Of a stretch of 50,302 nt of DNA, positions 14,807 through 50,302 are shown one piece after another. The position numbers were made by a program, and so were the translations under genes. The DNA comes from an uncultured Candidatus Saccharibacteria bacterium (GTDB lineage Bacteria > Patescibacteriota > Minisyncoccia > Phycocordibacterales > SBAW01), in assembly GCA_964566795.1 (NCBI GenBank), contig CAZMIU010000001.1, forward strand, positions 280,789 through 331,090, written 5' to 3'. Positions within the stretch are counted from its first letter, which is position 1. Each line of letters starts with the position of its first letter. The notes under the pieces are model-generated. The model had not been told where the DNA came from, did not search any database, and worked only from the letters and a program-made list of their open reading frames with translations.

Positions 14807-16015
14807 TCACAGGTACTCCTCAAGGAACGCTACCACAGAGCCCGGCGGAGTCATCCCCGGGTAGCGTTCGTCGCCAATGATGATGCGGTTGGGCTTCTTA
14901 TAGTACGCGGCCGAGAGGTTAAAGGTATAGACCCCCTTCTCCCCCGTACTGCGCAGCCTGTCTTGCGGCCGCTTGTCGCTCGACCACAAAAAGTCCAGAG
15001 ACTCACTCCCAAAGTGCGGCAGCCGCTCCAGAATATACGGAGCAACGCGCGAGCGTGTCGCCAGGAGGAAGGTCACTTCTGCATCACCCCCGCCGTAGAG
15101 CCCGGCACGCAGGTCGGTCAGCGTGTCGCCGGCGTAAAAGAGCCTCAGATCGCGGGTATGGAGGGCCGCGGCCTTTGCGGTACGGCCCACCAGCCAGTTG
15201 ATCATCCGCTCTTTTTCCGCGCCCCACGGTATCAGGTAGAGCGTGTACCGGCTTTTTGCCGGGTCCACCCGGTTTGGATGGCTCTCATCAACAGTCTTAA
15301 CACGCTGCAGGAGCCGGTTGCCCTGCACAGCCTGATCCTCAAGAATCTGCATGAGCTTTTGCATACGCAAGAGCCCATCCACACCCTCAAAGTTAAACTG
15401 CACACGGTAGCGCAAAGGTGCCACGTCGGTAACACCTTTGTAGTAGTTGGAGCCGTACTCAATCGGCGAGAGATAGTGGTGGAACTCCGGGTACACCTGC
15501 ACCATCGCGGCAAGCACCGCATCGCGCCATCGGTTGGGGCTGCCCTCTTTCATCTCTCCGGCAATGTAGTCGTAATTGAGGAAGGTGTCGTACTCCCAGT
15601 CAGTCATGTAGCCATGGCCGTTTCGCATGATGATGCCGCTGCCAAACCCGGCAGAGACATCACGGTCGAGCGAGTGCTTAAAAAACGGCACCTGCGCCGG
15701 GTCTACATACACATGCAGGCCATGTTTATCCCTGCCCCACCTGGGCGGAGGTTCGCTGTAGCCGTGCGCCTGTACGGAAGCAAGACGCATCTTTTCAGAG
15801 AGCATCAGCCCCAGTGTGCGTGCCGACACACTGCCGGTCGCAACACCTTTTCGTATCTGTAGCTCCTCCGCCCTGCGACGGTCTTCAATCTCCTCCTCAG
15901 AGTCAACCTCGCTGCTGTTTACGGTATTGGTGCCATCCTGGTCGGTCAGCACCATGGTCTTGGTCTCCCTCAACTTCTGTGCTGCTACAGACTTAGCGTA
16001 AGGATCTCCCCGCAT
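14807..16015 (-). CDS. HAD-superfamily hydrolase, subclass IIB (sucrose-phosphate-phosphatase-like)
   Basis: Motif I DQDGT, motif III Lys (PWGAEKERM), motif IV GDTLTD; AGGGG SD; TGA stop. Confidence 0.72.
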   Translation of the reverse strand: MRGDPYAKSVAAQKLRETKTMVLTDQDGTNTVNSSEVDSEEEIEDRRRAEELQIRKGVATGSVSARTLGLMLSEKMRLASVQAHGYSEPPPRWGRDKHGLHVYVDPAQVPFFKHSLDRDVSAGFGSGIIMRNGHGYMTDWEYDTFLNYDYIAGEMKEGSPNRWRDAVLAAMVQVYPEFHHYLSPIEYGSNYYKGVTDVAPLRYRVQFNFEGVDGLLRMQKLMQILEDQAVQGNRLLQRVKTVDESHPNRVDPAKSRYTLYLIPWGAEKERMINWLVGRTAKAAALHTRDLRLFYAGDTLTDLRAGLYGGGDAEVTFLLATRSRVAPYILERLPHFGSESLDFLWSSDKRPQDRLRSTGEKGVYTFNLSAAYYKKPNRIIIGDERYPGMTPPGSVVAFLEEYL

Positions 16016-16160
16016 ATCCTGCCCCTTTTCTAAAGAACGTCCGGCACACCGCGCACCGTCCCACGCATGAGGCTACAGCAGATATCCTGATGCCTACATG
16101 AAGCCGACACACGTTGCACCAGAGGATTGAAATATAGGGTTTTTGTGGTACTCTTTTGCC

Positions 16161-17291
16161 ATGAAAGTGCTCGCCATAGAGACCTCCTGCGACGAAACAG
16201 GCATCGCACTCCTTGAGGGCCGCCACAGTGGCGAGACAATGGAGTTTGTGACACTCAAGGCCGAGCTCCTGAGCCAGGCCAAACTCCACGCCCCGTTTGG
16301 AGGCGTCTTCCCCGCGCTCGCCAAGCGCGAGCACACCAAAAACTTGCCGGTGTTGTTTGAGCCGTTTAAAGATGACCAGTTTGACGCCGTAGTTGTGACA
16401 GCCGGACCCGGACTCGAGCCTGCGCTCTGGACAGGCATCGAGTTTGCCAAACAGGTCGCGAGCGAGCGCGGCGTGCCGGTGCTGCCGGTAAACCACATGG
16501 AGGGGCACATTATCTCCTCTCTTGCAGAACGACACCCTGACAAACTTGAGAATGTCGGGATGTCAGTAATTAAAGACGTGCAGTTTCCGGTGCTTGCTCT
16601 GCTAATTTCTGGCGGGCACACGGAGTTAGTACTTACGAAGGATTGGTTTGAGTACGAGATGCTCGGCCGCACGCTCGACGACGCCGTGGGCGAGGCGTTT
16701 GACAAAGTGGCGAGGATGCTCGAGTTGCCCTACCCCGGCGGCCCGGAGATTTCCAAACTTGCATCAAAAAGCCGGGCAGAAAAAGCTACGGGCAAAAGTC
16801 TGGCCGAATCAAATGAGGAGACCCGAGGACTTTTGAACGGAGGTTTTTCTGCCCGGCTCCCGCGCCCCATGCTCAATACCAACTCGTGTGACATGTCTTT
16901 TTCCGGTTTAAAAACAGCTGCACTGTACGCACTAAAAGACAAAAATCTGGCTGCAGAGGAAAAAGCTGCGTTTGCCGCGGAGTTTGAGGATGCCGTGGCC
17001 GAGGTGTTGTGTGCCAAGGTGCGCCGCGCCCTTAATGAAAGCGGCGCCAAGACATTTGTCATTGGCGGCGGTGTGGCGGCCAACCGCTACATCCGCGAGG
17101 AGCTGCAAAAGATAATTCTCGAGGAGTTCTCCGATGTCGAGTTCAGGCTCCCCCACCTCTCCATCACCGGCGACAACGCAGTCATGATAGGCGAGGCCGC
17201 GCTCGCCCGCCTCCTCTTGGGGCACCAGACCCTCGATTCCGCAAGGTTCGACCTTGCGGTAGAGGCCCGCGGCAACCTTTCTTTGGCTTAA
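16161..17291 (+). CDS. tsaD: tRNA N6-threonylcarbamoyladenosine transferase TsaD carrying an in-frame palindromic insertion
   Basis: IETSCDET, HMEGH, SGGHT, DDAVGEAFDK, SFSGLKT, TGDNAVMIG. Confidence 0.96.
   Translation: MKVLAIETSCDETGIALLEGRHSGETMEFVTLKAELLSQAKLHAPFGGVFPALAKREHTKNLPVLFEPFKDDQFDAVVVTAGPGLEPALWTGIEFAKQVASERGVPVLPVNHMEGHIISSLAERHPDKLENVGMSVIKDVQFPVLALLISGGHTELVLTKDWFEYEMLGRTLDDAVGEAFDKVARMLELPYPGGPEISKLASKSRAEKATGKSLAESNEETRGLLNGGFSARLPRPMLNTNSCDMSFSGLKTAALYALKDKNLAAEEKAAFAAEFEDAVAEVLCAKVRRALNESGAKTFVIGGGVAANRYIREELQKIILEEFSDVEFRLPHLSITGDNAVMIGEAALARLLLGHQTLDSARFDLAVEARGNLSLA
16770..16858 (+). repeat. Palindromic element family 1, copy B (in-frame in tsaD)
   Basis: 18-nt arms AGCCGGGCAGAAAAAGCT and AGGTTTTTCTGCCCGGCT; core AGTCTGGCC (16797-16805) and GGAGACCCGAGGACT (16817-16831). 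Confidence 0.9.
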
Positions 17292-28020: not shown

Positions 28021-28137
28021 GACTATATATGCTTAAGAAACGCACAATGCGCTCCCCTGTTAATACGAACCTCCTTAAGTATAGACCCCTCCTGGGACTA
28101 TGGCCCGTATCCTGGGGATATGCTATGCTACACATTA

Positions 28138-28428
28138 GCGCGTTAGGCAATAGCTCCGACGCCCCTTCCGGGGGTGCGGGGAGGAAAGTCCGGGCATCTA
28201 CCGAGCAATCGGTTAAAAAGGTAGCAGGTAACCCCTGCCATTTGCTCCTGCGGGCAAAAGAGGTGCGAACAGAGACGAGCCTCGGTCGAAAGACCGAGGG
28301 TGAAACGGCTAAATCCTTATCCAGATGCAAGGCCGTGCCGTGGCAACACGGAGTGCCGCTCGAGCCCCACGGCGACGTGGGGCCCAGATAAATTATTGTC
28401 CACGACAGAACCCGGCTTACAGACGCGC
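28138..28428 (+). ncRNA. rnpB: RNase P RNA (compact, about 290 nt)
   Basis: GAGGAAAGTCCGGGC (28181) and ACAGAACCCGGCTTAC conserved regions; P1 GCGCGTT/GACGCGC; terminator at 28437-28471. Confidence 0.95.
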
Positions 28429-28469
28429 GCGCAGATGCAAAAGCCCCCGGTAAACCGGGGGCTTTCGCT

Positions 28470-37152: not shown

Positions 37153-39024
37153 ATGCCAGAAGAGAAAAAGCAACAGTCAGGCGCAGGCGGCCATCGCTCG
37201 CGCGGAGGCCGCACACGAGGGTTTGGTGGCCGCACAGGCCGCTCGCGCGGCCGTTTGCGCCAGGGCGGCCCCAAGCCGCACCAGGCACACCCGGTGCGCC
37301 CGGACATAGACACAAAAGTTAATCCGGATGAAAAGCCGGTCCCGCCGCTTGCCCCGGGCAACATCCGCATTATCCCGCTTGGAGGCGTAGAGGAAATAGG
37401 CCGCAACATGACCATGGTCGAGTTTGGCGACGACATTATCGCCATCGACTGCGGCTTCCAGTTTAGAGAGCAGGACACCCCGGGTGTGGACTACATTTTG
37501 CCCAACACCAAGTACATGGAGGAGCGCCGCGATCGCGTGCGCGGGCTCTTTATCACGCACGGCCACCTCGACCATATTGGCGGCATCCCCTACGTTATAG
37601 ACCGCATCGGCTACCCGCCCGTCTACACGCGCGCACTTACTGCCGTTATGATCCGCAAACGCCAGGAAGAGTTCCCCAACCTCAAGCCTTTGGACATCAA
37701 GGAGGTAGAGAAGGCCGACACCGTAACCGTGGGCAAGCTCAAGGTCCGGTTCTTTAGCGTGACCCACACCATCCCCGACGCCATGGGCGTCATTGTCGAG
37801 ACCCCGTACGGCGACCTTGTGTTTACAGGCGACCTCAAGGTCGACCACAACGACGGTGTCCCCACCCCCGAGGAGGAAAAGGAGTTTGCCTACTTTAAGG
37901 ACCGTAAAGTGCTCTTTTTGGCAGCCGACAGCACAAACTGCGAGCGCGCCGGCTTCTCTATCCCCGAGCGCGTGGTTACCAAAACGATGGACGACATTAT
38001 CGCAACCACGCCGGGCCGCCTTATTATTGGCACCTTCTCATCCCAGCTCGAGCGCCTTATGCGCATCATCGAGCAGGCCGAGCGCGTGGGCCGCAAGATA
38101 TTGGTTGAGGGCCGCTCGATGAAGGTCAACATCGAGATAGTAAAGCATCTGGGCCTCCTCAAGGTCTCCGACAAGACCTTTATCGACTCCGCCCAGCTTG
38201 AAAACTTCCCCGACCCTAAAGTCTTGGTACTTGCTACAGGCGCACAGGGCGACGAGTTTGCCGCGCTCATGCGCATCGCGATGAAGACGCACAAGTACGT
38301 CAAGATGAAAAAGGGCGACACGGTCGTGCTTTCCTCATCGGTCGTGCCGGGCAACGAGAGAAGCGTGCAGAAGCTCAAGGACAACCTCTCGCGCCAGGGC
38401 GCGCGCATCATCCACCGCGAGCAGATGGATGTGCATGCCTCCGGCCACGCCAACCGCGACGAGACCTTCTGGATCCACCAAAAGATCAATCCGCGCTTCT
38501 TTATGCCCATGCACGGCTACCACTACATGCTGCGCGTACACGCAGATATCGCCAAGGCCTGCGGCCGCCAGGAGGACGAGATTATTGTCCCGGACAACGG
38601 CGCCATACTCGAGATCAGAGACGAGGGGCAGAAAATTGTCCGTCTCAAGGAGTCGGCTCCCAATAGCCTAAGGCTCGTAGACGGCTTTGCTATCGGCGAC
38701 ATCCAGGAGGTTGTGATACGCGACCGCACCGTGCTCGCTCAAGAGGGCATGTTTGTCATCATCGCCACGGTGAACCCCAAGACTGGCAAGTTGCGCAAAT
38801 CGCCCGACATCATCTCGCGCGGCTTTGTCTACCTCAGAGAGTCTCAGGATCTCCTGAACCAGGCACGCATCCTGGTCAAGAAATCCATCGAGGACGCGGC
38901 CAAGGGTCAGCAGCCGGTCAACTTTGACTTTGTCAAAAACCAGGTCACCGACAACCTCGCCCGCTTCCTGTTTGAGAAGACCAACAAGCGCCCGATAGTG
39001 ATCCCGGTAGTCCTAGGCGTCTAG
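37153..39024 (+). CDS. rnj: Ribonuclease J with an RG-rich N-terminal extension
   Basis: PLGGVEEIGRNM, THGHLDHIG, HASGH, PMHG. Confidence 0.95.
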   Translation: MPEEKKQQSGAGGHRSRGGRTRGFGGRTGRSRGRLRQGGPKPHQAHPVRPDIDTKVNPDEKPVPPLAPGNIRIIPLGGVEEIGRNMTMVEFGDDIIAIDCGFQFREQDTPGVDYILPNTKYMEERRDRVRGLFITHGHLDHIGGIPYVIDRIGYPPVYTRALTAVMIRKRQEEFPNLKPLDIKEVEKADTVTVGKLKVRFFSVTHTIPDAMGVIVETPYGDLVFTGDLKVDHNDGVPTPEEEKEFAYFKDRKVLFLAADSTNCERAGFSIPERVVTKTMDDIIATTPGRLIIGTFSSQLERLMRIIEQAERVGRKILVEGRSMKVNIEIVKHLGLLKVSDKTFIDSAQLENFPDPKVLVLATGAQGDEFAALMRIAMKTHKYVKMKKGDTVVLSSSVVPGNERSVQKLKDNLSRQGARIIHREQMDVHASGHANRDETFWIHQKINPRFFMPMHGYHYMLRVHADIAKACGRQEDEIIVPDNGAILEIRDEGQKIVRLKESAPNSLRLVDGFAIGDIQEVVIRDRTVLAQEGMFVIIATVNPKTGKLRKSPDIISRGFVYLRESQDLLNQARILVKKSIEDAAKGQQPVNFDFVKNQVTDNLARFLFEKTNKRPIVIPVVLGV

Positions 39025-39813
39025 CGTCCTGCGTATTTCTCTCTCGCTTGCTCCGCGCTCCAAAAGGGCGCGGAGTTTGTTTGCGCGCTTTTGGCGGGTG
39101 CTGCCCTCAAACTTACTTTGTTTGGCGTAGTGCTTGCTTTTTTGGTTAAGCCGCACACCCTGGCGCTTGAGGTGCGAGCCGTAGTCCATAAGCGCCGCAT
39201 AAAAGTCCCTGGGCTGCATCTTAGACTTCTTTAGAGCCTGCTCAACAAGGGGCAAAAGCTCCCTGTCGCTTATACTAGTGTTTTGCAAAACACCAGAATA
39301 GATATGATGAAAGAAAACGGTGCGGATGTTTGTTTCTATAAACACCGTAGGCTCGTTAAAGGCAAATGCCTGGACTGCCGCAACAGTATATGGCCCAACA
39401 CCAGGGAGCTTTGCCCGCGAAGCGGAAACTTTCTGGAAAAATAGTCTGGCCCGCAAGCGCTCCGAGCGCGAGACGGGAGACCCGAGGACTTTTTTCTGGG
39501 AAGTTTCCGTGGAGAGTATCTTTCCTGTCTCCCACAGGTACTTGCCGCGGCGGTTGTAGCCCAGACCCTGCCAGGCTTTTAGCACGCGCGAGAGCGGTGC
39601 CATCGCAAGCACCCTAGGGGTCGGAAATAGTTTAAGCCAGCGCTCGTAGTACGGAATTACCCTCTCTACTTGGGTCTGCTGCAGCATCACCTCGCTCACC
39701 AAAATGCGGTACGGGTCGCGCGTGTGGCGCCAGGGCAAATGCCTGCGGGCGCTTGTCTTGTAGTGCTTTTTGAGCGCCGCTACAAGCTCCAAAATAGCCT
39801 TGTCGTGGCTCAT
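39013..39813 (-). CDS. mutY: MutY-like A/G-specific adenine glycosylase without the 4Fe-4S Cys motif, carrying an in-frame palindromic insertion
   Basis: LPWR, VSEVMLQQT, WQGLGYNRR, LPGVGPYT, ALMDYGS with no following Cys cluster. Confidence 0.85.
   Translation of the reverse strand: MSHDKAILELVAALKKHYKTSARRHLPWRHTRDPYRILVSEVMLQQTQVERVIPYYERWLKLFPTPRVLAMAPLSRVLKAWQGLGYNRRGKYLWETGKILSTETSQKKVLGSPVSRSERLRARLFFQKVSASRAKLPGVGPYTVAAVQAFAFNEPTVFIETNIRTVFFHHIYSGVLQNTSISDRELLPLVEQALKKSKMQPRDFYAALMDYGSHLKRQGVRLNQKSKHYAKQSKFEGSTRQKRANKLRALLERGASEREIRRTLDA
39422..39510 (+). repeat. Palindromic element family 1, copy C (in-frame and antisense in mutY)
   Basis: Arms GCGGAAACTTTCTGGAAAAATAGTCT and GGACTTTTTTCTGGGAAGTTTCCGT; core at 39443-39451 and 39476-39490. 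Confidence 0.9.
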
Positions 39814-42798: not shown

Positions 42799-44340
42799 CT
42801 AGTCGGCGGGCTCTATCAACCCCAGTTTAATTAAACGGGCGTGTATCGAGCCGCGCTGGCGGCCAAACTCTTTGACCAGTGCGGCTACGCCTGTGCCCTC
42901 CTCAAACATGGTTGTGAGTTTGTCGTCGTCGTCTTGTGTCCAAGGCCTGTAGGCGTTGGGGTGTTTTTGGCGCAGTTTGTCGAGCTTCGACATCTCAACC
43001 TCTGGCTTAGGTTTGTTTGGGTCGGGTTCGTGCCCGCCGGATGCTTTAGTAAACTGCTTGTGCATGTCCTCAATCTCCTCGGGCGGCAGTTTGCCAAATA
43101 TCTCCTCCGCGCTCATCGAGGCCGCGCGAAACGCCTGGTCTCGCGCCAAAATGTCCGGGTGCACAGCCAGAGCGCGCTCGTTAATGCCAAGCAGGTAGAG
43201 CCCGCTTAGGTTGCGCACACGGCTTAAAGCCACATAGCCCTGCCCATACTCAAACGCGTCCGATAAGTCCATCACCGCGGCATCAAGACTCATCCCCTGG
43301 CTCTTGTGCACCGTAATAGCCCACGCCAGGCGCAGCGGCACCTGCGTTATCTGTGCCAACACGCGGTTGCCGTCGGCCACCTGCCAGGTGTCTGGCTCGG
43401 CCTCTATAACCTTGCCGGCACGGGTTGCCACCTTGGGCCAACCGGCGTCGCTCCAGCCCACCACCGTGCCGAGTGTGCCGTTAACGTATCCGTGCTCAAA
43501 GTTGTTGCGCGTAAACATCACCGTCGCGCCCTCTTTTAAAGAAAGCGTCCCGGGCGATAAGCATCCGCGCTTAAGCGCTTCCACCAGAGTGGTAGAGCCC
43601 GATGAGCGCATGTGGTATACCTTGAGCGCGTTCTCTATGCGCGACAGCGCCTCCTCGTTTATACGGTCTACGTCCTCGTTGTGGGTATAAAGTCTGGTGG
43701 CGTCCTCGGGGAGCTCGCCCACTTCGTGCCGCGTCTTGAGCAGTTCGCGATGCTCATCCTCAAGCTCGCCTTGGCGCATCGCACCCAATAGCCCCAAGAA
43801 CATGCCGTCGTCCTGGCGGTGCTGCTCGTGTAAGTAGCACGTAAGCGGGTTGGCGTCCTCCCACGCGCCTGACTCAAAGGCAAATTTGGTTGGCCCCTCA
43901 CGCGACACCGGCGGTAATTGAAAGAAGTCGCCCACAAAGACAACCTGCAGCCCGCCAAAGGGCTTGTCGCTACCGCGCAGGGTGGTAAGTGCGCGGTCTA
44001 CCAGTGTTAAGAGGTTGGCATCGAGCATAGACACCTCGTCAATGATAAGCACCTGGGCCGCGCGCACACGCCGCACCAGAGGCTCGCGCTCCATAAGCGC
44101 CTCAAGCTCCCAGTCGCTGAGTGACTTTTTAATCCCCACACCGCTCCAGGCGTGTATGGTCATACCGCCCACGTGTGTGGCGGCAATACCTGTAGAGGCG
44201 GTAATAGCGGGCTCTATGCCGCGTTCGCGCAGCCACGCCACATAGCGGTTAATAACGTAGGTCTTGCCTGCGCCCGGCTCGCCTGTAAGGAATACGTTGG
44301 CTCCGGTCTTGAGTATTGTCAGTGCCTGCTCCTGTGTCAT
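42799..44340 (-). CDS. Pif1-family 5'-3' helicase with a small C-terminal helical domain
   Basis: GEPGAGKT, DEVSM, GDFFQLPPV, ITVHKSQGMS, YVALSRV; C-terminal AYRPWTQDDDDKL...I..RL.KLG. Confidence 0.92.
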   Translation of the reverse strand: MTQEQALTILKTGANVFLTGEPGAGKTYVINRYVAWLRERGIEPAITASTGIAATHVGGMTIHAWSGVGIKKSLSDWELEALMEREPLVRRVRAAQVLIIDEVSMLDANLLTLVDRALTTLRGSDKPFGGLQVVFVGDFFQLPPVSREGPTKFAFESGAWEDANPLTCYLHEQHRQDDGMFLGLLGAMRQGELEDEHRELLKTRHEVGELPEDATRLYTHNEDVDRINEEALSRIENALKVYHMRSSGSTTLVEALKRGCLSPGTLSLKEGATVMFTRNNFEHGYVNGTLGTVVGWSDAGWPKVATRAGKVIEAEPDTWQVADGNRVLAQITQVPLRLAWAITVHKSQGMSLDAAVMDLSDAFEYGQGYVALSRVRNLSGLYLLGINERALAVHPDILARDQAFRAASMSAEEIFGKLPPEEIEDMHKQFTKASGGHEPDPNKPKPEVEMSKLDKLRQKHPNAYRPWTQDDDDKLTTMFEEGTGVAALVKEFGRQRGSIHARLIKLGLIEPAD

Positions 44341-44346
44341 ATATCC

Positions 44347-44447
44347 GCAAAATCAGAGTTTGTAAGAGTACGGATAATTTTTTGCTAAAAATTTCCTCAA
44401 GTCTCGTGTCGTCACACTTGCGAAGCCTCTTACAAACTCTATTTTGC
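44347..44447. repeat. Palindromic element family 3 (intergenic, immediately upstream of pif1)
   Basis: Arms GCAAAATCAGAGTTTGTAAGAG (44347-44368) and CTCTTACAAACTCTATTTTGC (44427-44447) enclose two inner hairpins and GCGAAGC. Confidence 0.8.
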
Positions 44448-44523
44448 TCCCTATGCCGAGTTTTACAAAGTAAAACTCGGCCAGAGCGGAGGGAAATAAA
44501 TATAAAATTTGATTTCCCGGAGT

Positions 44524-44910
44524 CTATTTCTCTCCTTCTCCGAAGTCCAAACAGACGGAGTTTAGGCAGTAGCGCTGGCCGGTTGTGGTGGGACCATCGT
44601 CAAAGACGTGGCCCAAGTGGCTGCCACACTGCGCACACACCACCTCGGTGCGGCTCATGCCGTGGCTATTGTCTGCAATCTCTTTAGTAGCGCCAGGCAG
44701 GGCCTGGTCAAAGCTCGGCCACCCTGTGCCCGAGTCAAACTTGGCATTACTGCTAAACAGCGGGTTGCCACACGCGGCGCACTTAAACATGCCGTCTCTG
44801 TCCTCGTGCAATAGCTTGCCCGAGAAGGGGGCCTCGGTCCCCTTCTCGCGCAGCACTTTGTATTGCTCAGGAGTCAGCTTCTCCTTCCACTGTTGTTCGT
44901 TATTAGGCAT
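44524..44910 (-). CDS. msrB: Peptide methionine (R)-sulfoxide reductase
   Basis: [36 protein letters not shown]. Confidence 0.97.
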
Positions 44911-44947: not shown

Positions 44948-45619
44948 CTAGTCCCACTCTTCAGTAGGGACAGCGCTAATATCCTCGGCGTCGGCCACTG
45001 CGGCCGGGATTACGCACAACACGCGCCCCGCAATTTTAAAGTCCTCGCGCAACACTATCGGCTTGTATTTAGGGTCTTTGTTCTCCGGGTAGAGGATGGT
45101 GACTCCCTCGCGGCGCTCCAGTCGCTTTACCGTCACCATGTCGCCCACTATCGCCGCCACCCTGTCGCCGCTCCTCACGTTGTCCGTAAACTGCACCAAA
45201 ATGTAGTCGCCGCTGTTAATCCCGGCGTCGAGCATACTGTCGCCCACAGCGCGCACAGCTACAATGTTGCCGTCCTCGCCCGCAATGTTTTTGTCTACCT
45301 GTAAAAACTCGTCGTACTGCTCTTGCGCGTACACAGACAGATCGTCACACCCCACATTGGCCACCACCGGCACCGAGACAAGCGTCTCGGAGCGGCCAAA
45401 CGCGTCTATGGGGCGCAGCTCTATGTTGCGGCGCGCATAGCGGCGGCGCACCACATAGCCCTTGCGCTCAAGGATGTCTAAGTACTGCACCACCGTGCGT
45501 ATAGACTTAAACCCCAGGTTTTTACGCAGCTCATCTAGAGTGGGCGGCTCGCCCTTGGCCTCTAGGTACAGGGAGATGTTCTCCAAAACACGCTTCTGCT
45601 TGCCGGTGAGTGTGCTCAT
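44948..45619 (-). CDS. lexA: LexA-like repressor (wHTH plus S24 peptidase)
   Basis: LT.KQKRVL..I...PPTLDEL, L..LERKGY, GDSM (Ser), VTVKRL (Lys). Confidence 0.88.
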
Positions 45620-45642
45620 GTGTGTATTTTTAAGGCTACTAA

Positions 45643-45660
45643 TGTAGTTAGTATACTACA
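45643..45660. promoter_or_regulatory. Candidate LexA operator overlapping the lexA -10 box
   Basis: TGTAGT-N6-ACTACA palindrome containing the minus-strand TATACT. Confidence 0.5.
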
Positions 45661-45735
45661 AATACCACACAAAAATACACAAAATACACAAATTTGGGTG
45701 GATAAAGCACTCGGGAACAAGTTGTGTAAAGGCGT

Positions 45736-47690: not shown

Positions 47691-48059
47691 TTATGCCTTT
47701 TTAGGCTCGCTTAAGCTAAAGCCGACCGTGTCGTCAAACGGGTATACCTTGCACTGGATATACGCTTGGTCAAAGTGTGCTTGCAGCACGCCGTTGACCG
47801 CCTGGGCAAGCCTGGTCTGCAGCCCGTCGCTCATGTGCTGCCACCGCGGGACATCTACCTCGCAGTGGATGTACTCGCCCAAGCCCTGCAGCATCCCGTC
47901 TTTGGGGAAGATGATAATTACATCATCATCACCCTCCACCCCAAGGTCCTCGATCTCCGATAAGGCTCCCACGAGGTTGCTAACCAGTACCTCGTATTCC
48001 GGGTCGCCCCACTCGTCTGGGAGCAGATAGACCTTGATAACCGGTTTGGCTTTCGCCAT
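47691..48059 (-). CDS. Hypothetical protein (ORFan cassette; possibly a tautomerase-like beta-alpha-beta repeat)
   Basis: GGAGG SD 5 nt before ATG; alternating strand/helix pattern; hairpin downstream. Confidence 0.72.
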   Translation of the reverse strand: MAKAKPVIKVYLLPDEWGDPEYEVLVSNLVGALSEIEDLGVEGDDDVIIIFPKDGMLQGLGEYIHCEVDVPRWQHMSDGLQTRLAQAVNGVLQAHFDQAYIQCKVYPFDDTVGFSLSEPKKA

Positions 48060-48149
48060 CACATCCTCCTCTTGTGCTGAAGTCAGCCCACACTCTACAA
48101 CAGTTGTACAAAAAGAAAAGGCCGCCCCGGATGCCGGGACGGCCTTGGC

Positions 48150-48344
48150 CTACTGCTTGCGCAGATTGTAAACAGTAATATAGCGGTGCATCATAGTTGT
48201 GCCCAAAAGCTCGCGTGAGGCCTTGTGTCTGATCTTCACACGCGCGCTGTCCTCAGACTCGGCATCTACGGTCTCCGAACCCGACCTCCTGTGCAGATGA
48301 TGCATGACATTCCTAAACTCCCAATCACCCTTCCACCGAGCCAT
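48150..48344 (-). CDS. Hypothetical 64-aa protein (ORFan cassette)
   Basis: GGAGGT SD before ATG 48344 (MARWKG); terminator at about 48110-48146. Confidence 0.6.
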   Translation of the reverse strand: MARWKGDWEFRNVMHHLHRRSGSETVDAESEDSARVKIRHKASRELLGTTMMHRYITVYNLRKQ

Positions 48345-48442
48345 CCGGACCTCCGTTTCCCTAAAACAAACCCGCCCCACTCTACCCCACCCACCCAAAA
48401 ACACAAATCCCTTCAAATGTAACTCCTTCTAGACAGAACTAG

Positions 48443-49474
48443 CTAAGATCTAAGAAAAAGTCCAAAAACTGTCTCTCTGTGCCATTTTAATGAGATTAGA
48501 TTAGGCCGAGATCGAGAATCTTGTGGCAGAAAAACCGGCTTTCCTTCTAATTCTTTAAGATACTCCACATGCATGGCTTGAGGGTGTACTTTTATTCTAT
48601 AATCGTCGGTAACAGTAAAAAAACCTTTGTCAAAGGCCCAATGTAAATTTCTTTCAAAAGCTATCCCGTTGGAAGGGTGTGGCCCTCCTCCAAATGCACG
48701 AGCTTGTAGGTGTGCTGCCTCAAGATTAAAAAAGTCTTTATAATTAATTAAGAGTTTCTTCCCAGTTACAGCGCATTTGTATTCGTAGTAATGCAATATT
48801 AAGTCCCTAAAAGATCTGCTTCTCAATACTCTGGTTTCCACCGATTTATCCTCCTCCAATATAACTGATTGGGAAACAGGCTCCTTTAATGCAAATTCAA
48901 GAACTTCATTAGGTATAACTTTCTTGCCTACTTCTTTTATACGTCTAAGTCCATCGAGAAATGCTAATTTGGAAAGTGGAACTAGCGCGTGGCTCTTTTT
49001 TGGACCAACTGCAATCTCCTGAAGTATCGAATCAAGGTTGCCATATTCTCGCGATCCAGGAATATACCGCAATGTTTTATAAAAAATGTTTACTAATTCT
49101 TTAGTTTCCGGCTCAAGCACACGTAATTTTACAATTACAACAATATCGTTAGGTTTGAAAAAATTTGCACCCGGATCGATCTCCCCATTTAGATAAAGCC
49201 TATATTCATCCCTATTTTCCCCATCAGGTCCTGTAGCATATTTACTGTTATGGTATACATACCTCGAAGAAACAGTCTCATCTGAATTTACTGAAAAAAT
49301 ATCGAGCAGAACATGATCGTTTAGAGCAACCTTACTTAACGGAGGGAAGAAGTTAATTGCCTTCTTTGAAATTAGAAAATACCTCCCCCCTCCTCCTGGA
49401 CGACCTTTCCTAAACCCCAACTCTTGAGGCTGCAGTCTCCTTATATAAGCTAACTCGTCGAATTCATACTCCAT
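48443..49474 (-). CDS. HNH endonuclease (putative restriction enzyme)
   Basis: YEYKCAVTG...LEAAHL...NGIAF..NLHWAFDKG; AT-rich DNA; overlaps the methyltransferase gene. Confidence 0.88.
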   Translation of the reverse strand: MEYEFDELAYIRRLQPQELGFRKGRPGGGGRYFLISKKAINFFPPLSKVALNDHVLLDIFSVNSDETVSSRYVYHNSKYATGPDGENRDEYRLYLNGEIDPGANFFKPNDIVVIVKLRVLEPETKELVNIFYKTLRYIPGSREYGNLDSILQEIAVGPKKSHALVPLSKLAFLDGLRRIKEVGKKVIPNEVLEFALKEPVSQSVILEEDKSVETRVLRSRSFRDLILHYYEYKCAVTGKKLLINYKDFFNLEAAHLQARAFGGGPHPSNGIAFERNLHWAFDKGFFTVTDDYRIKVHPQAMHVEYLKELEGKPVFLPQDSRSRPNLISLKWHRETVFGLFLRS

Positions 49475-50302
49475 AACCTTGATGTCTCTTGTTCTACAAG
49501 ATTATCATCCAAAAAGGAAGCTACCGATTCTGCAACAGCCTGCGCAAGCAACGGGGGTACAGCATTTCCGATCATTTTATATTGATCCCCCATAGAGCCC
49601 AAAAACTCAAAATCGTCAGGGAATGACTGTAACCGAGCGGCCTCTCGTACGGTTATTGAGCGAGCCTGGTCTGGGTCGGGATGTATATGGCGCAATCCAT
49701 CTTTATGCAAATGTGACACAATAGTGTTACTTTGTTTGTTTGGCTCTAATACGTAATACTTATGTACGCTAGATACTTTGCCTGTCTTTTCTGTATATAG
49801 CTTTTTTAGTGCCTCGGCTGAGGCATACTTACGTTTAGTCCTCCGAAGATCGAGCGCAAGTTCTTTAAAGATCGCAATGTCCCTTGTATTATGAAACCTG
49901 GGGCTGTGATTGAGAATGTTGGTTGTTGCAGGTATGTGAGAATTTTTCTCTTTTTTATTCTTATTCACTGCAAACTTTGGTAAGTCAAATATAGCCTCGG
50001 CAACGGTCTTCTTCCTCGTTTTATGCGAAGTAAGCGTGTTTGTATAGAAGTCGCACAACAACTCCTGCGGATCCTGTTCAAAAGACTCATCTCGAATACC
50101 AAAGAGCACAACGCGTCTCCTGTTTTGCGGCACACCAAATTCTGCCGCATCAACTTGGGCATATTTTTCAATGTCTTCAACAAGAGAGTAGCCAATCTCC
50201 TTGAAGGTCTGTCTAACCCTTTCAACAATAGGTATGCCCCCAGGTCGGGCACTAAGCATGCCAGGGACGTTCTCAAATATAAATGCGTGAGGTTGTAGCC
50301 TG
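49450..50302 (-). CDS. DNA (cytosine-5) methyltransferase, 5' part outside the window
   Basis: FENVPGM at the edge, FGVPQNRRRV (motif VIII), ITVREAARLQSFPD (IX), IGNAVPP (X). Confidence 0.93.
   Translation of the reverse strand, partial: RLQPHAFIFENVPGMLSARPGGIPIVERVRQTFKEIGYSLVEDIEKYAQVDAAEFGVPQNRRRVVLFGIRDESFEQDPQELLCDFYTNTLTSHKTRKKTVAEAIFDLPKFAVNKNKKEKNSHIPATTNILNHSPRFHNTRDIAIFKELALDLRRTKRKYASAEALKKLYTEKTGKVSSVHKYYVLEPNKQSNTIVSHLHKDGLRHIHPDPDQARSITVREAARLQSFPDDFEFLGSMGDQYKMIGNAVPPLLAQAVAESVASFLDDNLVEQETSRLWSMNSTS

Follow-up and report, generated by a model that had tools for sequence, protein, structure and literature searches.

The 183-nt spacer between msrB and pif1 in the 50,302-nt stretch of DNA analyzed here (hereafter the window; contig CAZMIU010000001.1 of an uncultured Candidatus Saccharibacteria bacterium) contains a palindromic element of 101 nt, termed the T-element, whose predicted fold is a three-way junction. 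Compensatory changes in all three helices among 17 distinct copies show, at the level of sequence, that this fold is under selection. Strong matches among relatives all lie directly upstream of the gene for a Pif1-family helicase, and the element is conserved there in either orientation. Genomes of the Candidate Phyla Radiation (CPR)/Patescibacteria are tiny and almost without spacer DNA, and reports of structured non-coding elements in them are, to our knowledge, very few. The tie to one gene, encoding an SOS-linked Pif1 helicase, together with conservation in either orientation is hard to reconcile with an ordinary mRNA leader. The locus offers a tractable case for deciding whether selection acts on a DNA hairpin or on RNA, and it illustrates the turnover of palindromes at one site, where they become inverted, are duplicated in inverted orientation or collapse.

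The palindrome and its fold

Relatives' loci are referred to below by L numbers and sequencing runs by X numbers. The F-form designates the element strand that is pif1-sense in the window (minus strand), R being the opposite orientation. Both genes adjoining the spacer (44341-44523) lie on the minus strand, and the spacer holds the following features:

44347..44447, minus strand: T-element, three-way-junction palindrome of 101 nt (90-92 bits with the covariance model, E ~1e-23 to 1e-26)
44347..44368: outer stem P1, pif1-side arm, pairing with 44427-44447; terminal GCAAAAT/ATTTTGC
44427..44447: outer stem P1, msrB-side arm, pairing with 44347..44368
44373..44397: A/T hairpin P3, GGATAATTTTTT-GC-TAAAAATTTCC on the plus strand; F-form loop AGCA
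44399..44421: GC hairpin P2, core GTGT-CGTC-ACAC at 44407-44418 with F-form loop GACG and a CAAGT/ACTTG extension
44421..44427, plus strand: GCGAAGC (F-form GCTTCGC), belonging to the P1-P2 junction motif YYCGYAG
44455..44481: H2, perfect 12-bp hairpin GCCGAGTTTTAC-AAA-GTAAAACTCGGC, bearing GTTTTAC/GTAAAAC, the terminal motifs of the element
44491..44518: H3, hairpin GGGAAAT...ATTTCCC just after the msrB stop; its loop TTTATATTTAT contains a -10-like TATATT

A direct sequence check recovered every feature listed in an initial annotation that had been made from the letters alone. Its description of a distinct structured palindrome that, with the hairpins following it, makes up the entire msrB-pif1 spacer was borne out as well. 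The palindrome ends 6 nt from the pif1 ATG. Its arm core (44350-44368 against 44427-44445, 19 nt) is 89% complementary, and GCAAAAT/ATTTTGC, which corresponds to GTAAAAC/GTTTTAC in relatives, extends the arms to 44347 and 44447. Within P3, AATTTTT-TGCT-AAAAATT forms an inner hairpin at 44376-44393, and the F-form places GAGACTTGAGG between P2 and P3 (minus strand, 44395-44405). The fold exceeds that of shuffled sequences on both strands, with -69.9 kcal/mol for minus-strand RNA (z = -8.1) and -44.8 kcal/mol for plus-strand DNA (z = -9.4), none of 200 shuffles being as stable in either case.

Two covariance models were built, R1 from 8 and R2 from 17 copies, and both strands of the window and of 86-89 loci from ~70 relatives (~1.0 Mb) were scanned. 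All 17 copies share a three-way junction of the outer stem P1 and the hairpins P2 and P3. P1 measures 12-17 bp, is variable in sequence and is flanked by an A-tract and a T-tract; the F-form starts with GTAAAAC or GCAAAAT and ends, after the second strand of the stem (P1'), with GTTTTAC or ATTTTGC. The junction YYCGYAG leads from P1 into P2, a hairpin with a 3-5-bp GC stem and a loop, CGAC(N)GG, that is invariant in the 17 copies. A second junction, GAGG..T(A/G)AGG (also given as GAGG..TAGG), leads into P3, an A/T stem whose loop ends in ..CA (AGCA, CUCA, AUCA or CAGCA) and is followed by the junction G(Y)A before P1'. The GCGNAGC form seen in the window is restricted to the gamma and alpha subtypes and is hence not a core feature.

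All 30 modelled pairs of the window copy are Watson-Crick. Across the alignment of the 17 distinct copies, which was fitted to the model and has to be read with this caveat, paired cells reach 94.8%, compared with 80.1 +/- 1.1% in shuffles, and none of 500 shuffles attains the observed value. Changes on both sides were found for 23 of the 30 pairs (10.3 expected from shuffles), distributed over P1 (13/17), P2 (4/4) and P3 (6/9), and the base of the P3 stem covaries as GGA/TCC, GTA/TAC, GGG/CCC and CG/CG. Sliding the 3' partners by 1-3 columns lowers pairing to 34-58%. This comparison shows a three-way-junction fold that is, judged by its substitutions, under selection, and indicates that selection sees a folded single strand; to this extent it agrees with the earlier proposal of an element acting through ssDNA.

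Of the two hairpins on the msrB side, H2 is not conserved in relatives, being absent from the 111-nt spacers of L007 and L013. Collapsed arm remnants or hairpins resembling the H2 situation occur in L012, L014 and L021, and H2 may be the collapsed relic of a second element copy. H3 has counterparts at the same place in L028, L032 and L033, with another stem and the same loop TTTATATTTAT. The sole sigma-70-like promoter predicted in the spacer (TAGACT-16-TATATT, 44526..44499, minus strand) has its -10 in this loop.

Distribution, orientation and turnover

All matches with E < 1e-7 are situated directly upstream of pif1. They comprise 17 distinct full-length copies (60-105 bits), located 6-11 nt from the pif1 ATG or, for the distal copy of a pair, at ~120 nt; an additional copy in L009 is cut by the contig end (41-46 bits). 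The carrier genomes display 67-100% Pif1 identity, and element homologs occupy the same site in 14 loci besides the window. The sole credible copy away from pif1 is a weak one (30-32 bits) in a distant genome, L057, where it lies between a SIMPL-like open reading frame (ORF) and secE-nusG; pif1 of L057 is without the element. Scanning the window with filters off returned this site only (90 bits), the next-best matches (<=21 bits) being ordinary A-tract/stem/T-tract terminators. Neither the arm motif AGAGTTTGTAAGAG nor the P3 core occurs a second time in the window, and run X1, which contains this genome, holds no other contig with >=80% similarity to the element. Because the strong matches in ~1 Mb are all directly upstream of pif1, the element is, in everything sampled, a single-locus element with one locus per genome and not a dispersed or mobile family; the initial annotation had supposed another palindromic family or a distant relative. 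A scan of a collection of species-representative genomes for the pattern GTTTGTAAGAG-N40-70-CTCTTACAAAC gave three matches in unrelated phyla with unrelated interiors, which is the chance level. Viral contigs contained no match to the P3 module or to CGACGG...P3. Rfam 15 yielded no match at the gathering threshold (best at E <= 10: mir-316, 20.9 bits against a threshold of 80), and a full-text literature search found no paper on palindromic elements in CPR bacteria; without a match in either, the element appears to be previously undescribed.

Parts of the element are found elsewhere. The P3 module (32-36 nt) recurs in other metagenome contigs with different flanks: a metatranscriptome contig carries an exact 32-nt match to 44365-44396 in another context, and a 34-nt unitig of the module from run X9 is covered at twice the depth of the contigs next to it. 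The module or the element therefore has a second context in some relatives. In an RNA-library contig of run X15, the P3 module is flanked by TGTGTTTGTGTATTTTTGTGT, similar to repeats found upstream of lexA (see below). All that the 44-nt msrB-pif1 spacer of L035 contains is one small hairpin, GTTCC-GCGACGG-GGAAC. It has the invariant P2 motif CGACGG as its loop, which suggests that P2 may be a functional unit on its own. At the same position before pif1, a clade with 66-69% Pif1 identity carries long AT-rich hairpins of a 'delta' type (e.g., GGCCCGATAGAATAAC...GTTATTCTATCGGGCC) in L024, L027, L029, L039, L042 and L015 (~100 nt before pif1), and such hairpins likewise occur in L031 and L034. 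The covariance model does not detect them (they contain strings like CACGACCCC and TTCGCAGG), and they could be decayed relatives or independent elements.

Loci differ in the orientation and number of copies as follows:

F only: window, L007, L028, L030, L032/L033, L041
R only: L011, L013, L017, L018, L020, probably L009
[R][F] pairs: L012, L014/L019, L021
Empty msrB-pif1 spacer (23 nt): L016/L092
Other hairpins or nothing: clade with 66-69% identity

Within the lexA-pif1 clade filled and empty loci are interleaved. Arm sequences differ completely between the three subtypes (alpha, beta, gamma) yet stay complementary, and the four closest genomes (87-91% Pif1 identity) carry F-gamma, F-beta, R-alpha and R-beta. 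In L014, [alpha-R][beta-F] comes before what is left of an alpha-F arm, and in L021 an alpha-R remnant precedes [beta-R][alpha-F]. The simplest history would start from an ancestral array [alpha-R][beta][alpha-F]; recombination between its two inverted alpha copies would have turned beta around, and one alpha would then have decayed. As far as aligned loci can tell, this comparison shows a unit that has been repeatedly inverted, duplicated in inverted orientation and deleted. In the five runs that contain the window strain, one spanning contig each was found and no inverted variant or strand-change joint, although contigs can hide rare forms.

The interior is constrained irrespective of orientation. 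Alpha interiors are virtually identical between R copies (L011, L013, L014, L017, L018, L020) and the F copy of L021, and the R-only clade displays a compensatory P2 change, GGGC/GCCC to GCGC/GCGC, while the flanking spacer diverges. The same constraint in either orientation argues against a conventional pif1-sense leader or riboswitch. Leader-like features are present: the element keeps its place upstream of one gene, its helices covary and its junctions are conserved. A cis-regulatory leader or riboswitch was nevertheless rejected for lack of a fixed orientation, as R copies stand alone in L011, L013, L017, L018 and L020 with the interior still conserved. The initial annotation had named a single copy conserved at pif1 as the outcome that would make the element a cis-regulator; such a single conserved copy is what we find, but conservation in both orientations contradicts the pif1-sense leader itself. 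Its further idea, that the structure may occlude translation of the helicase, is poorly supported. Outside the stem lie both the start codon and the relatives' GGAG Shine-Dalgarno sequence, located 4-6 nt before the ATG in F loci, and R-only loci form a clade that has the reverse-oriented element and no Shine-Dalgarno sequence.

Gene context and candidate roles

The spacer belongs to a conserved gene string, whose members next to the element are:

42799..44340, minus strand: pif1, Pif1-family helicase of 513 aa (PF05970, PF13604, PF21530), downstream of the spacer
44524..44910, minus strand: msrB (SelR domain, PF01641), upstream of the spacer
44948..45619, minus strand: lexA (LexA_DNA_bind and Peptidase_S24), heading the conserved lexA-msrB-pif1 string

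The closest named relatives of the window helicase are Candidatus Adlerbacteria (Patescibacteria/CPR), and the element belongs to a clade of Adlerbacteria-like CPR bacteria. Metagenomes of bioreactors and wastewater contain the window strain as well. The string lexA-msrB-pif1-ZIP is kept in relatives with 64-91% Pif1 identity. In a sister clade (66-69% Pif1 identity), pif1 directly follows lexA, the lexA stop sometimes overlapping the pif1 start, and for this reason pif1 of the window lineage looks like the distal gene of a lexA operon. Among close relatives (L015, L016, L022-L042) the interval between lexA and pif1 holds nothing (overlapping genes), a hairpin only, msrB, TMEM175 and msrB, or a DNA methyltransferase with DUF6996/6997 and msrB, a variation that makes it a local rearrangement hot spot. 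Relatives with <=60% Pif1 identity have a TTTTTGnTACACT-type -10 box exactly 6-8 nt before the pif1 ATG, which indicates putatively leaderless pif1 mRNAs; this promoter usually stands right behind an ordinary terminator hairpin. In L043-L064, the 20 nt before the pif1 ATG contain a TACACT, TATACT, TAGAAT or TATGAT box, usually after TTTTTGn, and these boxes suggest a candidate promoter consensus for these CPR bacteria.

Upstream of lexA (window 45620-45720, minus strand), direct repeats TTTGTGTATTTTGTGTATTTTTGTGTGG precede a palindrome, TGTAGTATACTAACTACA, that overlaps a TATACT -10-like box, and TGTGTATTTT repeats are found in this region as well. Repeats and palindrome constitute a candidate LexA operator and promoter. 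A LexA operator in the msrB-pif1 spacer was discarded, as neither TGTGTATTTT nor TGTAGTATACTAACTACA occurs there. Elsewhere in the window, a class A RNase P RNA of reduced CPR type (28135-28435; 108.9 bits against a gathering score of 100) spans 301 nt compared with 367 positions of the model. Towards the window end (48001-50302), G+C falls from ~0.57 to 0.41-0.45, and this end may be foreign or island DNA; the corresponding flank of L001 carries two DNA methylase genes and an HNH gene.

As to the role of the element, we tentatively favor a terminator-derived, orientation-independent structured element that would separate lexA-msrB from pif1 and whose interior would bind a factor. It would derive from an A-tract/stem/T-tract terminator of bidirectional type, such as precedes pif1 in more distant relatives. 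This origin is proposed because the covariance model cross-matches terminators of the window and because the terminator of distant relatives abuts the TTTTTGnTACACT promoter of pif1; GTTTTGC, the end of the element, is the same string that leads into this promoter. An orientation-independent hairpin, very stable and placed 6 nt before the pif1 start, would attenuate or insulate transcription that enters pif1 from lexA-msrB. In the interior, conserved loops and junctions would form the platform of a trans-acting factor; this factor would read the strand of the element itself, in the form of RNA or of an extruded DNA hairpin or cruciform. The selected fold, the confinement to pif1, the conservation in either orientation and the operon-like context (synteny of lexA-msrB-pif1, overlap of lexA stop and pif1 start in some relatives) speak for this reading. 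Promoters inside the element were considered and rejected, as TTGAGG-17-TTATCC, TACTCT and TTTTTTGCTAAAAAT are not conserved across subtypes, and no conserved -10 of an antisense promoter was found for R copies.

Several observations weigh against this terminator-derived separator. A terminator scan does not call the site, the T-tract being only 4-5 nt long and the stem enclosing a branched interior of 58 nt. Conserved loops would be superfluous in a plain terminator, and a factor reading RNA would be expected to fail when the element is reversed. In 16 of the 17 copies, among them seven of the eight R-oriented ones, the F-form has a more stable fold than its complement (by 4.1 kcal/mol on average), and its GU pairs outnumber AC pairs 10 to 3. 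These asymmetries, which stem from few and non-independent events, are a hint that reading concerns the strand of the element itself and not the pif1 transcript. Arm subtype and orientation do not follow the Pif1 tree, and empty sites exist, both being the behavior of a selfish palindrome. Four RNA runs gave scattered contigs only and are uninformative on the spacer.

That the element is indeed a selfish, non-autonomous palindrome, akin to repetitive extragenic palindromic (REP) sequences and bacterial interspersed mosaic elements (BIMEs), MITEs (miniature inverted-repeat transposable elements) or Rickettsia palindromic elements (RPEs), inserted and tolerated in the 5' spacer of pif1, is possible but on the unlikely side. 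Turnover would then proceed through local inverted duplication, inversion and deletion, and the arms would be kept by hairpin-driven template switching or by the palindrome's own mobilization needs. The alternation of both orientations in one or two copies as in BIMEs fits, as do the distribution of alpha, beta and gamma regardless of the Pif1 tree, the interleaving of filled loci with the empty L016/L092, the homolog at an unrelated locus in L057, the P3 module in other metagenome contexts and the CGGAG-like direct repeats that flank many F copies. The same genome moreover has another palindromic family, with in-frame insertions in coding sequences. Such an origin is at odds with the restriction to one locus per genome in everything sampled, with the persistence of loops and junctions down to 67% Pif1 identity despite very little spacer DNA, with the lack of matches in viral contigs, and with arm sequences that are not conserved, unlike inverted repeats serving as transposase substrates. 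No transposase or REP-associated tyrosine transposase (RAYT) is encoded in the window or the loci, apart from a lone Y1_Tnp ORF in an empty-site genome. This ORF of 219 aa (16963-17622 in L016/L092, the spacer-empty clade) lies 7 kb downstream of pif1 and matches Y1_Tnp (IS200/RAYT-like) weakly; tblastn with it found no homolog in the window or the other loci, with ~20-50 kb per genome searched. Orientation-independent conservation, hairpin covariation and the tolerance of G·T on one strand would equally suit a strand-specific single-stranded DNA hairpin or cruciform that serves a protein, be it a recombinase, an HUH/Y1 enzyme or Pif1 itself, as the mark of a lexA-pif1 recombination hot spot or as a means by which the helicase senses structured DNA at its own gene. 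We judge such a site unlikely. R loci have no conserved promoter for an antisense RNA, the content of the lexA-pif1 interval varies (msrB, TMEM175, methyltransferase and DUF6996, nothing) and the element has ..AAC/GTT.. at its ends, like attC core sites; yet the attC consensus RYYYAAC/GTTRRRY is not followed beyond AAC/GTT, the neighborhood contains no gene for a recombinase, integrase or HUH enzyme, such a hairpin is missing from the other gene junctions of the variable interval, and the strand asymmetry rests on few independent events. Less probable still is a T-shaped flip/flop DNA hairpin or cruciform read on its own strand, most attractively by the neighboring Pif1, or by a recombinase. 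If true, the structure would couple pif1 expression or lexA-pif1 rearrangement to the capacity to resolve structured DNA, and a CPR bacterium would possess a regulatory element of non-B-DNA that is under selection and specific to one locus.

An independent gene for a small non-coding RNA of ~100 nt, with P1 and the U-tract as its own terminator and transcribed in either direction, would account for the three-way junction, the conserved loops and junctions, the strong covariation, the higher stability of the F-form in 16 of 17 copies and the P3 module in an RNA-library contig. It is nonetheless very doubtful. F-only copies start 0-5 nt after the msrB stop and the 5' end of R-only copies is 9-11 nt from the pif1 ATG, so that in neither case a conserved promoter fits, and Rfam contains no match. 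Hardly credible, finally, is a phase-variable inverton with the P1 arms acting as recombinase inverted repeats that flip a regulatory interior. Inverted repeats do surround a short segment, close relatives have this segment in either orientation, and the beta copy that lies between inverted alpha copies is turned around in L021 relative to L014. However, the unit takes its arm asymmetry and flanking bases along when it flips, the 58-nt interior is without a conserved promoter and no recombinase is nearby, the spanning contigs of the five runs with the strain include no inverted variant, and R and F states are fixed per lineage, with different ribosome-binding contexts.

Family 1 and comparison with known systems

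Family 1, the second palindromic family of this genome, combines a core, AGTCTGGCC...GGAGACCCGAGGACT, with complementary arms of variable sequence. Its copies lie at ~2126-2216 (intergenic), at 16768-16860 inside the tsaD ORF (16143..17291, plus strand) and at 39422-39512 inside a HhH-GPD/MutY-like ORF (39013..39813, minus strand), and the reading frame is open through both copies in coding sequences. Alignment of the three copies with MAFFT was too poor for a covariance model, and relatives were therefore searched with a fuzzy version of the core, which occurs four times in 1.0 Mb, three of them in the window; the fetched flanks of other relatives had no core match. The fourth copy, in L011 (81% Pif1 identity; ~15830-15930, core at 15894), is in the HhH-GPD gene downstream of pif1, its core being almost identical to that of the window copy in the same glycosylase gene while the outer arms differ.

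The initial annotation had noted a minus-strand resemblance between the two palindromes. GAGACTTGAGG indeed differs from GAGACCCGAGG of family 1 by two mismatches only, but matches of this quality are at chance level in the window (14 against 12.6 expected). The core AGTCTGGCC is absent from the T-element, and the covariance model scores family 1 at best with 13.7 bits (E = 0.33, range 0.3-0.7, for the copy at 2128-2215) and returns nothing for the other copies. Local alignment of GACACGAGACTTGAGGAAATTTTT with GACAGGAGACCCGAGGACTTTTTT gives 19/24 identities on the same relative strand (p ~0.002 and ~0.05 for two copies; the third is not significant), and a CGCAAG-type junction is similar in both. 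The two may be distantly related. In each, a conserved core is enclosed by outer arms that are variable and covary. Family 1, however, lacks the P3 hairpin and the CGACGG loop and sits in frame in genes, whereas the T-element is found before pif1 only. The latter is thus set apart from the dispersed, coding-sequence-invading family of the same genome.

Among known systems, the bidirectional intrinsic terminators of the same genome share the AAAA(C)...(G)TTTT flanks, the stem and the position after a gene stop with the T-element, whose stem differs in enclosing a conserved two-hairpin interior of 58 nt and in its short T-tract. Integron attC sites are imperfect palindromes of 57-141 nt at gene 3' ends that likewise conserve structure over arm sequence, presumably fold from a single DNA strand and have ..AAC / GTT.. 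at their ends. They conserve R and L boxes in the arms and leave the centre free, the reverse of the T-element with its conserved centre and free arms. An attC identity was rejected, as only AAC/GTT fit and no locus has an integrase or a cassette array. The terminal repeats of parvoviruses (adeno-associated virus) are T- or Y-shaped hairpins that combine a long A-A' stem with a pair of small internal palindromes and exist in flip and flop forms. The likeness is an analogy of shape only, since the T-element is chromosomal and internal and has neither rolling-hairpin replication nor a Rep gene.

RPEs and MITEs (Correia, ERIC) are palindromes of ~100-150 bp with a stable predicted hairpin and presence/absence variation, RPEs also in a reduced genome. 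They form multi-copy sequence families, and RPEs often lie in frame in genes, a placement that recalls family 1, in contrast to the intergenic, single-locus T-element. A MITE was rejected, as the arms covary instead of being conserved, the flanking CGGAG-like repeats are imperfect and include the Shine-Dalgarno sequence, and the element is single-locus. REP, BIME and REPIN sequences of Enterobacteria and Pseudomonas are imperfect intergenic or intercistronic palindromes that occur in either orientation, in alternating clusters and in site-variable number, with proposed roles in mRNA stabilization or termination and in protein binding. REPs comprise 20-40 nt of conserved sequence in tens to hundreds of copies per genome and are linked to a RAYT gene, whereas the T-element has ~100 nt, a three-way junction, variable covarying arms, a single locus and no RAYT in reach; a REP-type GTAG stands 8 nt 5' of P1 in only three loci (L007, L009, L012). 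Although it departs from them in copy number, conserved sequence and RAYT, the T-element resembles REP/BIME clusters most in its behavior, as its orientation alternates, its number varies and its position is intercistronic.

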